DNA from: a bacterium
GTDB lineage: Bacteria; Babelota; Babeliae; Babelales; JAUWHS01
Direction of reading: 5' to 3'
NCBI GenBank assembly: GCA_043818275.1
Contig: JBDRFY010000079.1
Location: 1 to 38,231 of the forward strand
Length of the DNA stretch: 38,231 bases
Below, in pieces: positions 1 through 8,775 of the stretch. Position numbers and translations under genes: made by a program. The stretch's first letter is position 1. Each line of letters opens with the position of its first letter. Below the pieces are notes generated by a model. That model was not told where the DNA came from. It searched no databases and worked only from the letters and a program-made list of their open reading frames with translations.

Positions 1-494
1 ATGAGTGTGCCAAGCGAAGCGCATGTTAATAAATCGGTGCAAATCCGATCTTGACAAGGTCTAGCCAACCGTCAAGAACAGAATTCGACATTCAGAGAGG
101 TAACGAACTGGATGAAGCTCGGAGGATGGATGTATCAGGCTGCAACGAAAGTGAATGTATTGAGCCCCGTAATATCCATTGTCGTAGAGGTCGACGCTTT
201 TCATTGTGACGGAAGACAATACCGCTGTAACGATTTGGCAAGGAAACAGCGGCTCTACCGGGGTCTGAGGCAGTGGCATGATACAAAATGGTTAACATGT
301 GAACTTGGGAGATCCACTAAGTTCTTCAATTTTGAAGTACGCCGAAACAAGTCAAACAAAGACGAATAATGCGGATAACTTAGTGGAAGTCGGACTGACT
401 GATAGTACTCTGAGTTTGGGAAAGCCAAGCACATGGCTGCAGATTGACAGCTAAGGGGAAGCGGTCAGAGAAAGTGAAACAGGTTGAAGCAACC

Positions 495-513
495 AAAAAA
501 AAAAAAAAAAAAA
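495..513 (+). repeat. A19 homopolymer upstream of the RT ribosome-binding site
   Basis: 19 consecutive A counted directly. Confidence 0.9.
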
Positions 514-528
514 GAGGTACCAGAGACG

Positions 529-1857
529 ATGAAAAGAACTTACGAAGATAAGCTCAACCTGATAGCTGAAATGGTTAAAAGAGACAAAAAGATTCGACTT
601 ACAACTTTGTATCACATGGTGAATTCTGACAGTCTCGAGAAGTGCTACAAAAAGCTCAACAAGGCGAGCGCTAGCGGCACTGATAGAGTAACAACACGAG
701 AATATGGAGCATACCTAGCGGATAATATCTCAGATTTAAACATTCGACTACGAAGGAAAACATACAAACCTAAATCGGTCAGACGTGTCAACATTCCAAA
801 ACCTGGAAAGAAAGGAGCGACAAGACCTCTTGGGTTACCGGCAACTGAAGATAAACTTGTTCAGATGGTAGCGAAAGAAATACTGGAAGCAATCTATGAA
901 CAGGACTTCAAAGATTTTTCACATGGTTTCAGACCGGGAAAAGGCTGTCATATGGCAATCAAAGAACTCAACAATGCTGTCATGTATAAGCCAATCAACT
1001 GCATTGTTGAGGTAGACATCAAGAAATTCTTCGACACAGTAAATCACAAATGGCTCTACGAAATGTTAAAACAACGAATAGCAGATCCAGTTTTTCTGGG
1101 TCTAATATGGAAAATGCTGAGGGCTGGTGTGATGGAAGGCGGTCAAGTAAAGACGAATGAGATTGGAACACCGCAAGGTGGAATAATAAGTCCAATACTT
1201 GCAAACATTTATTTGCACTATGCGTTGGATCTTTGGTTTGATGCGGTATACCGTAAACGAGCGAAAGGTTATGTTCAACTTATAAGATACTGTGATGACT
1301 TTGTCATGGTATGTGAAAGTAAACATGACGCACATCTATTTCTAGAGCTCCTTGAAGAACGTCTTGCAATGTTTAAACTGGAAATATCGGAAGATAAAAC
1401 CAAAATACTTAAATTTGGAAGACGAGTATGGCAACAAGCACAAAAGAGGAATGAGAAAATTGAAACTTTCGACTTCCTTGGATTTACGCATTATTGCGGA
1501 GCAAGTAGAAACGGATTGGTTATCATGGGACACAAAACATCGAAGCAACGATTGCGAGAAAAACTCAAAGCACACAATTTATGGCTAAAGAAAATGCGCA
1601 ATGGAGTTCCCATGGTGGATCTGTGGAAATTAATAAAAAGCAAGCTAATTGGACATTACAACTATTTTGGAATAAATGGAAACATACGATGTCTAAAGCA
1701 ATATTTTAGACGAATTATATCGCTTTGTTTCAAGTGGTTGAATAGAAGGAGTCAGAAGAAAAGCATGGATTGGAACCAATTTATGAAATATCTTCAGTGG
1801 AACCCTCTACCGCAACCACGAATTTATCACCAAATATTGTACTCTATGCCAAAGTAA
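529..1857 (+). CDS. ltrA: Group II intron reverse transcriptase/maturase, no C-terminal endonuclease domain
   Basis: Motifs RRVNIPKPGK..RPLGLP, SHGFRPGKGCH, VDIKKFFD, GTPQGGIISPILANIYLH, RYCDDFV, FDFLGF, and X/thumb domain GHYNYFG...WLNRRSQ. ATG529 follows GAGGT (514-518); the ORF track starts at TTG484, which reads through the poly-A. Confidence 0.95.
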   Translation: MKRTYEDKLNLIAEMVKRDKKIRLTTLYHMVNSDSLEKCYKKLNKASASGTDRVTTREYGAYLADNISDLNIRLRRKTYKPKSVRRVNIPKPGKKGATRPLGLPATEDKLVQMVAKEILEAIYEQDFKDFSHGFRPGKGCHMAIKELNNAVMYKPINCIVEVDIKKFFDTVNHKWLYEMLKQRIADPVFLGLIWKMLRAGVMEGGQVKTNEIGTPQGGIISPILANIYLHYALDLWFDAVYRKRAKGYVQLIRYCDDFVMVCESKHDAHLFLELLEERLAMFKLEISEDKTKILKFGRRVWQQAQKRNEKIETFDFLGFTHYCGASRNGLVIMGHKTSKQRLREKLKAHNLWLKKMRNGVPMVDLWKLIKSKLIGHYNYFGINGNIRCLKQYFRRIISLCFKWLNRRSQKKSMDWNQFMKYLQWNPLPQPRIYHQILYSMPK

Positions 1858-1874
1858 GTGAATGCACTTTTTAA

Positions 1875-1961
1875 GAGCCGTATGAGGGAAAACTTCAAGT
1901 ACGGTTCTGTGAGGGGCATTAAAACTTTAAAATTATTAGGAGTTAAATATGTCTACTCGAC
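1875..1961 (+). ncRNA. Group II intron catalytic domains V and VI
   Basis: AGC triad at 1876-1878, canonical DV hairpin, DVI with branch A seven nt from the 3' end. Confidence 0.93.
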
Positions 1962-2185
1962 AAAATATGTTTCCGCTAATTAATACGCAAATTATAACAA
2001 ATAAAAAAGGCCAGGAGTTAGGTGTTTTTATAGAAATGAAGGATTATAAATTGTTATTGGAAAAGTTTGAGGATTTAGTCTTAGGTATCATTGCTCATAA
2101 TATTAAAGAGAAAAGTGAAGGCTACGAATCATTAGAGAACATTAAAAAAGAGATAATGAATAAGCGTAAAAATGGAAAAAAATAA
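1949..2185 (+). CDS. Putative antitoxin of a RelBE/ParDE-type pair, interrupted by the intron (spliced form joins 1..4 to 1962..2185)
   Basis: Short ORF (ITNKKGQELGVFIEMKDYKLLLEKFED) overlapping the relE-like gene by 14 nt. Spliced start reads ATG AAA AAT ATG TTT; unspliced start is ATG1949 with AGGAG at 1938-1942. Confidence 0.72.
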   Translation: MSTRQNMFPLINTQIITNKKGQELGVFIEMKDYKLLLEKFEDLVLGIIAHNIKEKSEGYESLENIKKEIMNKRKNGKK

Positions 2186-6007: not shown

Positions 6008-6592
6008 TTATCCACCAATTCTTTGTTGTAATTGTTGAACTAATTTTGTTAATTCAGTAATTTTCTTTTCTAATTCTGCAATTTTACCATCTGATTGAGT
6101 TGTTGCTGTTGTTGGCGTGGTATAAGTTGGTGTTGGAGCTTTTGGCGCTGTGTAAGTTGTTGGCGCGGTATAAGTTTGAGTTGTAGCTTTTGGCGCTGTG
6201 TAAGTCTGCGTTGTAGTTTTTGGAGCCGTGGAAGTCGTAGTTTTTTGTGTTGTATAATCTTTTGTCTTGGTTGAGGTTGTGTCTGTTGCAGAAGTTGCGC
6301 CTGTTTGAGATGTTGCAGCTCCCGTAGATGTTTTTGGGTTATAATTAGTAATTGTTGTTACATGACTTGGCAAGGTCAGCGCGCTTCGTTGCGCTGAAGT
6401 TAATGAAATTGGGTTTCCAGCCAAAAAATTATTCGCTTGTTGTTGTCCAAGAATATTTACAAGCGCTGCCTCCATAACGTTTTGTTTAGGATAATAATTA
6501 TCCCCCCTGCTGTTGAGGTACCAGATTTGAGTTTTAGCGCCCAAATTCATAGTAAAAATTAAGAAAAAAAGCAGTAAAAAATATTTTTTCAT
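6008..6592 (-). CDS. Secreted Thr/Pro/Ala-rich low-complexity protein with C-terminal coiled coil
   Basis: Signal peptide MKKYFLLLFFLIFTMNLGA, Thr-rich repeats, heptad tail IAELEKKITELTKLVQQLQQ; GGGAG SD upstream. Confidence 0.8.
   Translation of the reverse strand: MKKYFLLLFFLIFTMNLGAKTQIWYLNSRGDNYYPKQNVMEAALVNILGQQQANNFLAGNPISLTSAQRSALTLPSHVTTITNYNPKTSTGAATSQTGATSATDTTSTKTKDYTTQKTTTSTAPKTTTQTYTAPKATTQTYTAPTTYTAPKAPTPTYTTPTTATTQSDGKIAELEKKITELTKLVQQLQQRIGG
6121..6228 (-). repeat. Intragenic degenerate 30-bp tandem repeat (APKxTTQTYT)
   Basis: Units at 6121-6150, 6151-6168 (shortened to 18 bp), 6169-6198 and 6199-6228. Confidence 0.8.
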
Positions 6593-6714
6593 TTTTCTCC
6601 CTTTGTTTATTAAAATTATCTTCCCGAAACATCTTTACTATAATATTAAATAATTTCTTTTTGATGCAATAATTTGTTAAAGTTTGTTTTTGATTTAAAT
6701 AAAGGATTTTTTAA

Positions 6715-6981
6715 ATGATTTCTTTTTTATTAGGTTTAGGGCTAGGCATTTTTTATAGTCATGCGTTTTTATTTCAGCAAAAGAAAAATTTTAATTTGTC
6801 AGTTCAAAAAAAGACAATAATCCGTAATTCTGTTTTTAGCATGTTTACAAGATTTTTGATTTTTCTTTTATTTCTTATCTTTTTTTCTTTAATATTAAGC
6901 ATTAATATTTTTTTAGTTATTTTTGGTTTTTTGATTTCTTTTTGGTTGTATATTTTTATTTCTCTTAGGAAAAAAATATGA
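6715..6981 (+). CDS. atpI: ATP synthase subunit I / AtpR-like membrane protein
   Basis: Small hydrophobic ORF (SMFTRF) overlapping the atpB start by ATGA. Confidence 0.65.
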   Translation: MISFLLGLGLGIFYSHAFLFQQKKNFNLSVQKKTIIRNSVFSMFTRFLIFLLFLIFFSLILSINIFLVIFGFLISFWLYIFISLRKKI

Positions 6982-7838
6982 ATATCTCGATTTTTGAATA
7001 TTGGGCAGTAAGACCATTAGCTAAATTTGGTTTAACCGGTAAATTTTGGGATATTCATTTAGATACCTTAATTTATACATGGGCAGCGATGTTGCTTTTG
7101 TTTGGCGTATCTTTAGTTGGTGTTTATTTTATAAAAAGAAAAATTAATATTGTTTCACTGCTTACAGAACAAGGAGTTGATTTTTTTATAAATCTTACCA
7201 AAGAATCTATGGGTTCAACTTTTACTTATAAACATTTTGCATTTATTGCAACCATGTTTTTTTATACGCTTTTTTGTTGCTTAATTGGATTATTTCCATA
7301 TCTGGAAGAATCTACAAAAGATCTGAATACAACTTTGGCTTTGGCAATTATAAGTTTTTTGTATGTTCATTATCAAAAAATAAAATATAAGGGGTTGAAA
7401 GGTTATTTAAAAGAATATATTGAACCCTTTTTTGTTTTACTTCCATTAAACGTAATTGGGGAAATTGCAAAAGTTATTTCAATGTCATTTCGTCTTTTCG
7501 GAAATATTTTGGGTGGTGGAATTATATTTTTTATTGTTGTTGAAGTTATTAGAGTTTATAAGATTCCTTTCATGATTTTTACATTAGTTGTTTTAGCTTC
7601 TTATTTTATTATTAATAAATTTGTAGATTTAAATGCGCATAGAATTTTAAAAATTCACCTATATACTTTTTTAGGATTAATTTTCTCTCTAGCCTGGTTA
7701 CAAATGTTTTTTGGGGTTTTTGAAGGAGTTGTGCAGGCTTTTGTCATAACAATGCTGACAATAACTTATTTAGCTGTTGGTATTCATAACGAAGATGAAG
7801 TAGTAAATCAAAAAGGAACTCAAGATGTTGACGCCTGA
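6978..7838 (+). CDS. atpB: Fo ATP synthase subunit a
   Basis: TKDLNTTLALA, PLNVIGEIAKVISMSFRLFGN (essential Arg), VQAFVITMLTITY. Confidence 0.95.
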   Translation: MNISIFEYWAVRPLAKFGLTGKFWDIHLDTLIYTWAAMLLLFGVSLVGVYFIKRKINIVSLLTEQGVDFFINLTKESMGSTFTYKHFAFIATMFFYTLFCCLIGLFPYLEESTKDLNTTLALAIISFLYVHYQKIKYKGLKGYLKEYIEPFFVLLPLNVIGEIAKVISMSFRLFGNILGGGIIFFIVVEVIRVYKIPFMIFTLVVLASYFIINKFVDLNAHRILKIHLYTFLGLIFSLAWLQMFFGVFEGVVQAFVITMLTITYLAVGIHNEDEVVNQKGTQDVDA

Positions 7839-8775
7839 ACTATTACATTATTTTGCTGTTGGAATTCCTGTTGTTTGTGCCGGATTAGGTACAGGAGTTG
7901 GACAAGGAATTGCGGCTTTGGGAGCAATTGAATCTTTAGTACGTCAACAATTGGGAAGAGAACAAAGTTTCAGAGCGATGATTATTGGGCTTGCTTTGGT
8001 TGAAAGCGCTCTTGTAATTGCTTTAGTTGTTTCAATTTTAACTTTGTTTGGTCCGCAAGCAGTTATTACCTGGCCAATCGCGTTTGCGGAATTAGGTATG
8101 AGTATAGCAATTGGTTTTTCTTCTTTATTCGTAGGTTTATCTTCAAGTTATGCTGTTAGATCCGCGTGCATTTCGATAACAAGACAACCATTTGCAAGTC
8201 AAAAAGTTTTAACTTTAATGTTGCTTATTCAATCTTTAATTGAAGCGGCGTTAGTTTTTTCTTTTATAGTTGCCTTGTTTATTAGAAATGGAATAAATCC
8301 TGAACTTGATATTTATGGTGGTTTAAAATTGTTATCCGCAGGTCTTGCGATCGGTATAGGTTGTATTGGTCCATTACTTGGGCAGGCTATTTTTGCAAAT
8401 AAAGCTTGTCTGGCTGTTGGATTTAATTCGGATGCATATAAAAGAGTATTGCCTTATTCGCTTTTGAGTGAAGCGGCGATTGAAACGCCTTTAATTTTTT
8501 CTTTATTAGTATCGTTATTAATTCTTTATTTTCCTTTAAATCCTTCAAATTATTTTTTATCGATTGTTAGTTTTTCTATTGCTGCCGTTACAATTGGTTT
8601 GGGGTCTTTTGGCGCTGTTGCTTCAGGAAGAGTTTCAGCTAAGGGATGTCAGGAAGTTGCTTTGAATTCAGAAATTTATGCTTCATTATTGCGTTCAACT
8701 TTGTTGGCTCAGGCATTTATTGAATCAACTGTTATTTATGCATTAATAGTTTCTTTGTTTTTGTTAATACGCTAA
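7825..8775 (+). CDS. atpE: Fo ATP synthase subunit c, four fused c hairpins (316 aa)
   Basis: Four 80-aa repeats, each with a Gly/small-residue helix and a conserved Glu (E60, E140, E220, E300); RQ loop in repeats 1 and 2. Confidence 0.92.
   Translation: MLTPELLHYFAVGIPVVCAGLGTGVGQGIAALGAIESLVRQQLGREQSFRAMIIGLALVESALVIALVVSILTLFGPQAVITWPIAFAELGMSIAIGFSSLFVGLSSSYAVRSACISITRQPFASQKVLTLMLLIQSLIEAALVFSFIVALFIRNGINPELDIYGGLKLLSAGLAIGIGCIGPLLGQAIFANKACLAVGFNSDAYKRVLPYSLLSEAAIETPLIFSLLVSLLILYFPLNPSNYFLSIVSFSIAAVTIGLGSFGAVASGRVSAKGCQEVALNSEIYASLLRSTLLAQAFIESTVIYALIVSLFLLIR

Follow-up and report, generated by a model that had tools for sequence, protein, structure and literature searches.

The DNA analysed here, the window, is a stretch of 38,231 nucleotides at the start of contig C79 of a 1.3-Mb Dependentiae-like genome (G000). 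It opens with the last four bases of a 5′ exon, ATGA (1-4), followed on the plus strand by a class E group II intron of 1957 nt (5-1961) with 5′ GUGUG and 3′ AC ends. The DNA reads GTGTG from position 5, the last intron base is C1961, and the 3′ exon begins at 1962. Rfam matches were obtained for domains I-IV (40-273, E = 9e-34) and for domains V-VI (1873-1961, E = 5e-9). RF02005 and RF00029 both score over their cut-offs and, together with the predicted folds, give a six-domain ribozyme with a domain V, a bulged A in domain VI, and GUGYG...AY ends. Domain V (1874-1908) has a 5-nt GAAAA loop at 1888-1892, and domain VI (1910-1959), with the bulged branch A1955, folds with a z of about −3; the z for the whole of domain I is −0.75. 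The α′ element, UGGC at 237-240, is in a terminal loop of the Rfam alignment, and its complement is GCCA at 64-67. EBS1 (UCAUU, 202-206) is complementary to AAUGA, as would suit an anti-start-codon guide, and the EBS2 region (171-181) contains UCC at 175-177. These features, like the genes below, are on the plus strand. No promoter-like site was found within the intron, and two plus-strand terminator-like matches inside it coincide with intron stems.

Domain IV encodes a reverse transcriptase (RT)/maturase of 442 amino acids (529-1857), with YCDD at 1288-1299 and a score of 339 bits against TIGR04416 (cut-off 300). The protein ends in the maturase domain, and a search for an endonuclease domain gave no HNH match at E ≤ 1. 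An earlier reading of the window, made from the sequence alone, had proposed placing this RT among the known classes. Among references for B, C, D, E, G, ML, CL1A, and CL2A, with class E labels from the supplement of Miura et al. 2022 (PMC8919778), the three class E proteins give 341-393 bits and 42-48% identity, while the others give 117-164 bits; in the tree, the RT is nested with two class E references. A run of about 19 A's in domain IV (495-513) lies directly before the Shine-Dalgarno (SD) sequence of the RT. The length of this run may be an assembly error, as the relatives' proteins suggest a shorter one. The same genome holds a second, unrelated group II intron (L203, contig C16, about 6400-8450), whose RT groups with a class C reference and appears broken.

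Near its 3′ end, the intron carries a second set of translation signals. Domain VI contains AGGAG (1938-1942), a 6-nt spacer, and ATG (1949-1951), with the AUG paired in the basal stem. The AUG and the following 10 nt, up to 1961, make 13 nt, or four codons plus one base, in frame with the 3′ exon. This exon (1962-2185) encodes a RelB-like antitoxin, with a weak match to Pfam PF18506 that is below cut-off, and the end of the antitoxin gene is overlapped by a RelE/ParE-family toxin gene (2172-2471). The sequence-only reading had placed ATGA, AGGAG, the spacer, the ATG, A1955, and the 3′ exon at exactly these positions, and its two translations, MKNMFP from spliced and MSTRQNMFP from unspliced RNA, were reproduced; both are in frame with the antitoxin. 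An additional in-frame ATG at 1967 is too far from the domain VI SD, and the intron-less ortholog described below has Leu there. In unspliced RNA, the host ATG opens a short frame into the intron (1-54), with 17 codons and a stop at 52-54.

The 5′ exon in the window consists of the host ATG and one more base (IBS1), and this shortness had been noted as a caveat, with the expectation that an SD would lie upstream and that an empty allele would start at the same ATG. Contig C73, which overlaps window 1-141 exactly, settles the caveat, since it gives AAGGAG, 6 nt, and ATGA, the same SD-to-ATG spacing as in domain VI. The empty allele is found in G119, a genome of the same genus, where a syntenic locus without the intron has the same upstream genes and an identical SD-ATGA stretch. 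The antitoxin of G119 (P0122) begins MKDLFP, in register with the spliced MKNMFP. This synteny confirms the join of C73 to the window; an assembly artefact at the contig start was considered and is ruled out by the exact C73 overlap and the G119 locus. The insertion site also lies within the last codons of an overlapping upstream metallo-hydrolase gene, whose frame in unspliced RNA stops at window 27-29, with loss of only its last few residues. Neither a second copy of the intron nor an empty antitoxin allele was found in G000, and no joint skipping the intron was found among the contigs of seven runs, in which coverage is patchy. In G119 (L257, contig C131), the remaining ca. 580 bases 3′ of the antitoxin ortholog contain no plus-strand open reading frame (ORF) of at least 60 amino acids, so that the toxin gene may be missing or disrupted in that genome.

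Run X1 shows the intron at a second site. A 219-nt contig of depth 2.5 joins window 1-107, with 0 differences, to a different upstream flank, and the 30 flank bases compared, out of 112, match contig C70 of G000 exactly, at an SD and start codon. The target is an intact 430-amino acid lolC/E-like permease gene, which is intron-less in G000. Thus, as far as one short contig covering the 5′ end shows, the same intron begins at ATG+1 of an unrelated gene. A second site would explain why the contig breaks exactly at ATGA, and together with the empty alleles it implies that the window intron is mobile.

Insertion sites and guide pairing in the clade

Relative loci were collected from genome contigs (7), from the phylum (5 of 261 genomes), from plasmids, from metagenomes (the best 80 of 599 confirmed, from 2 of the 64 parts of the collection), and from viral contigs (78, the best of 404), and the 176 loci reduce to 112 distinct RTs. 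The nearest named relative of the RT among the genome contigs is from a TM6 (Dependentiae) genome. In the RT tree, the window falls in a group of 39 tips, here called the clade, whose boundary was set after the flanks had been seen. SH-aLRT values are 96-100 for its subgroups and 39 for the 39-tip node, 79 with two sister tips included, and 73 for a core of 35 tips. The 5′ ends were picked by motif and profile, and three are noncanonical; 3′ ends were set six bases beyond the bulged A, and two end in CA or CC. A domain V pattern gave 0 matches in the viral contigs, and a shorter one gave four stretches, two of them informative. Two clade members are twintrons, in which another group II intron interrupts domain I (L023) or domain V (L054).

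An ATG lies 0-4 nt before the 5′ junction in 27 of the 35 visible clade junctions, at +1 in 23 of them, and eight members are not at start codons. Outside the clade, 2 of 32 callable junctions follow ATG, many outgroup ends being uncallable. The element had been proposed to target start codons, with other copies expected at such sites, and the flanks support this: the second site and most of the relatives sit just after ATG.

In the clade, EBS1 usually reads anti-AUG. The pairing of EBS1 with the intron's own flank, over 33 introns, has a mean of 5.5 vs. 2.6 ± 0.23 for permuted flanks, and 0 of 20 000 permutations reach it. For the EBS2 region, the clade-wide values are closer, 4.15 vs. 3.48 ± 0.14, again with 0 of 20 000 permutations. 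In the members off start codons, EBS1 has changed to match the new sites, suggesting that insertion is guided mainly by RNA-DNA pairing. In the window copy, EBS1 makes 4-5 pairs, and the UCC of EBS2 (175-177) is complementary to the GGA at −14 to −12, part of the SD at both known sites, so that a weak interaction of 3-4 bp is possible. Comparison across the clade shows the anti-AUG role of EBS1 and its covariation with the junction, and it shows a contribution of EBS2 for the clade that is weak for the window copy.

Pairing this short leaves room for another guide, and the intron could instead be led to start codons by the translation machinery or by its RT, for example via initiation complexes. 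G000 has 4071 WATGAA sites, of which 253 have an upstream SD, and both known intron sites are among those with an SD, as such a guide would favour. However, EBS1 and EBS2 covary with their own flanks also in members that have left start codons, and a mid-gene copy in Megaera has inserted at a non-start sequence that resembles an SD and matches EBS1. We regard machinery-led targeting as improbable and pairing by the two EBS elements as the probable principal guide.

Other targets were seen in the survey. One clade member is present in three copies (L012-L014, genome G242), each after the same short GC-rich inverted repeat, which is not a start codon; its EBS1 is altered to fit the repeat and its domain VI AUG is kept. 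An enterobacterial class E intron (L116, L117, L164, and about 50 near-identical viral-contig loci) has 5′ flanks that end in a CTGT-N8-ACAG palindrome plus T, and we take this palindrome to be a LexA/SOS box. In genome G147, five 3′ ends of a different group II intron lie at the starts of contigs C16, C45, C53, and C84 and at the end of C129 (L211-L215). This intron ends in CC and has a short domain VI without an AUG, and in four of the five 3′ flanks a long phase-1 ORF follows whose N terminus resembles a signal peptide. Start codons may be targets of this intron as well, and if these flanks are gene starts, a spare start would not be required for such targeting. Pattern and Rfam searches found neither its 5′ ends nor its RT.

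The start codon in domain VI

What is the function of the AUG in domain VI? It is present in the 3′ strand of domain VI in 31 of the 34 clade tips with a complete 3′ end. The distance from the AUG to the intron end is 13 nt in 16 tips and 16 nt in 11, then 19, 15, 33, and 17 nt; it is one more than a multiple of three in 28 of 31, and it matches the phase of the junction in 22 of the 24 start-site introns with both ends. Where the target has shifted, the distance is still phase-matched: L100 is at ATG+0 with 15 nt, Megaera at NTG+3 with 33 nt, and L105 at ATG+4 with 16 nt. In 20 of the 24 introns at start sites, and in 2 of the 8 off start sites, an SD with at least five matches accompanies an in-phase AUG (Fisher p = 0.005, a value that is overstated since the clade tips are related and kin are not independent). 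Domain VI of the outgroup gave SD plus AUG in 0 of 24 calls, about four of these being doubtful. Thus, the domain VI SD and AUG are conserved and phase-matched, as had been predicted from the window. The clade demonstrates, at the level of sequence comparison, both targeting of start codons and conservation of the frame. The sequence-only reading had named three observations that would speak against it, namely a flank without an SD or an empty allele starting elsewhere, copies unrelated to start codons, and an unconserved domain VI start; all were looked for and none was found.

The frame opened in domain VI forms the N termini of CoaE, AtpD, DUF433, IS3 transposase, integrase, and tail sheath proteins, from scans of 21 and then 14 proteins, several of which had no match. 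The 16S tail of G000 carries the anti-SD, and spacers that follow AGGAG in G000 are most often 5-7 bases long. Existing gene predictions place the start of such proteins at the domain VI AUG, and therefore N termini in databases, such as MSTR, can be intron-derived. Seven loci (L021, L026, L048, L050, L051, L056, and L113) share a long domain VI extension of about 70 extra nt, which is also found in outgroup class E introns and which leaves the SD-AUG spacing unaffected.

Could the SD and AUG have been kept for RNA structure or RT binding, the match in phase being inherited chance? In favour of this, the AUG is base-paired, a single ancestral state (ATG+1 with 13 or 16 nt) is common to most tips, which are therefore not independent, and the Wolbachia-type L106, at a start codon, has lost its AUG by a compensatory change that leaves the stem intact. 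However, a structural role fits poorly with the outgroup class E introns, which lack the motif. Moreover, the strand opposite the AUG varies by wobble while the AUG stays constant: the partner has gone to G-U in 5 of the 16 13-nt types, one further partner having been miscalled by the script. The SD-AUG distance is also held constant although the length of domain VI varies widely, and about seven of eight length changes, placed on the tree by eye, keep or follow the phase. We consider this structural explanation highly improbable.

It is also unlikely, if somewhat less so, that the site serves mainly to regulate the intron, with a bound ribosome opening domain VI or shielding the RNA and so tuning splicing or mobility, and with rescue of the host gene secondary. 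In most members, the AUG is located in the basal stem at a distance of 4 nt from the branch A, and association with ribosomes protects the Ll.LtrB intron (PMC3851717, as cited in PMC12584367). Binding alone needs no frame, yet the phase is matched and tracks shifts of the target. Such regulation would be compatible with a spare start, and a spare start for the interrupted gene is the explanation that we favour.

Some members break the pattern. In 7 of 20 scorable start-site introns, the phase matches but no long ORF follows (L056, L023, L026, L011, L016, L106, and L108); for three of the seven, another copy of the same intron does have a long ORF, and L108 misses the frame of a tape-measure gene by one base. 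The Wolbachia-type L099, at a start codon, has a domain VI start that is out of phase and a poor SD, and the mid-gene Megaera copy is out of phase as well. In genome G032 (contig C1, about 70000-70500; L240, L216), a 342-nt 3′ fragment of the intron is fused into the start of another gene and precedes an intact 316-amino acid WD40 ORF that begins at the domain VI AUG. This fragment was not counted as proof that the start is used, as its SD is weakened.

A probable spare start and its possible consequences

From these observations, we conclude with good confidence that a lineage of class E introns sits just behind start codons and that the SD and in-frame AUG of domain VI are a likely spare start for the interrupted gene. 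EBS1 would guide the intron to the start codon, EBS2 would add pairing to the spacer or SD, and, judging from group II introns in general, the intron would enter by reverse splicing into DNA at these sites. Splicing would then restore the native start MKNMFP. Unspliced RNA would give MSTRQNMFP, in which five residues coded by the intron replace the first two. We infer translation of unspliced RNA from the domain VI start, probably at a lower rate than from the native one: the AUG is predicted to be 98% paired, and opening the site is predicted to cost 8.3 kcal/mol, compared with 5.8 kcal/mol for the native site in spliced RNA, which makes the spare start probably the weaker of the two. Selection on the reading frame would keep the AUG-to-end distance in steps of three or make it follow shifts of the target. 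The likely benefit is access to the starts of many transcribed genes, including essential genes, where the intron could settle with little harm to its host. Ribosome loading at domain VI would compete with splicing or branching, as we infer from the position of the site. "Competition with branching" may be the wrong framing, because hydrolysis was the only splicing route reported for the three active class E introns assayed in vitro by Nagy et al. 2013 (PMC3753933).

A Rickettsiales-like subclade suggests a further use of the host start. In L016 (Megaera; CP113869, 14228-14725), L020, and L061, a frame of 163-166 codons begins at the host start, stays open across the entire 5′ ribozyme, and ends only a few bases from the RT start. 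Such a frame arose in 0, 0, and 4 of 20 000 shuffles for L016, L020, and L061, respectively. The junction phases of L016, L020/L061, and L106 differ, and an indel of 1-2 bases at about intron position 10 compensates for this difference. These frames suggest that the RT is translated by coupling from the host start, with the caveats that RNA structure also suppresses indels and that the three introns are 79-86% alike and are not independent. The window intron has no long frame through its 5′ ribozyme, the frame from the host ATG closing after 17 codons. A more extended scheme is an exchange of translation starts at both ends of the intron. The lineage would take the host SD and AUG at its 5′ end, where the ribozyme frame of the Rickettsiales-like subclade would imply host-driven, coupled translation of the RT, and in return would provide the host gene with the SD and AUG of domain VI; splicing would then switch the host protein between two N termini and two levels of expression. 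This scheme we hold tentatively, and we lean slightly against it.

If the spare start is used, a catalytic RNA domain doubles as a translation initiation region under selection for reading frame. Furthermore, the intron would then offer a small, endonuclease-free scaffold that inserts at gene starts without knocking the genes out.

Comparison with known introns

The window intron resembles the class E introns described by Nagy et al. in having a short RNA, a 5-nt domain V loop, a terminal α′, and both EBS1 and EBS2. The domain V loop and the terminal α′ loop (DId3 stem-loop) are given in that paper as traits of classes E and F, and covariation of EBS1 and EBS2 with the 5′ exon is clade-wide here, that of EBS2 being weak in the window copy. 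The other class E introns sampled differ from the clade in showing no preference for start codons and no SD plus AUG in domain VI. In the full-text literature searched, we came across neither a domain VI carrying an SD and AUG nor start-codon targeting by class E introns; Michel 2007, Simon 2008, and Leclercq 2011 are outside that literature, and an earlier mention in them is possible. The parts of PMC4424553, PMC3073962, and PMC4028801 that were available, and of the main text of PMC8919778, likewise do not mention a domain VI start.

The sequence-only reading had mentioned that bacterial intron lineages targeting translation signals are described, and one exists, a specialised IIB1/CL1 clade at initiation or termination codons (Michel et al. 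2007, as cited in PMC12584367), but it is of a different class, and the window intron departs from it in three features. The first is the RT, which in that clade is CL1; the window RT has 30% identity and 117 bits to the CL1A reference and is far from it in the tree. Second, IIB1/CL1 introns such as Avi.groEL and EcKTE56.groEL carry a 300-700-nt insertion in domain I, which is absent here, the Rfam domain I match starting 35 nt into a 5′ RNA of 524 nt. Third, these introns encode an endonuclease, C-terminal in EcKTE56.groEL, and the window RT has no endonuclease match. The two lineages are alike in inserting at or beside start signals, and the groEL members, when they insert, bring a substitute stop codon. 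The available part of PMC12584367, the source for these features, contains no mention of a spare SD and AUG in domain VI for IIB1/CL1 introns, and it calls open how they colonise start and stop codons and the starts of housekeeping genes. The present clade would be a second, independent origin of start-codon siting, with a mechanism that can be read from the intron: a guide complementary to AUG, together with a replacement start in the domain that holds the branch point.

IIC-attC introns, which carry outward promoters (PMC3001079), are similar in that an intron-borne expression signal compensates for the insertion and favours the downstream gene. In those introns, the signals are promoters in domains I and II of an intron inserted antisense at attC, whereas the window intron carries a translation start in domain VI, in the sense orientation at a start codon.
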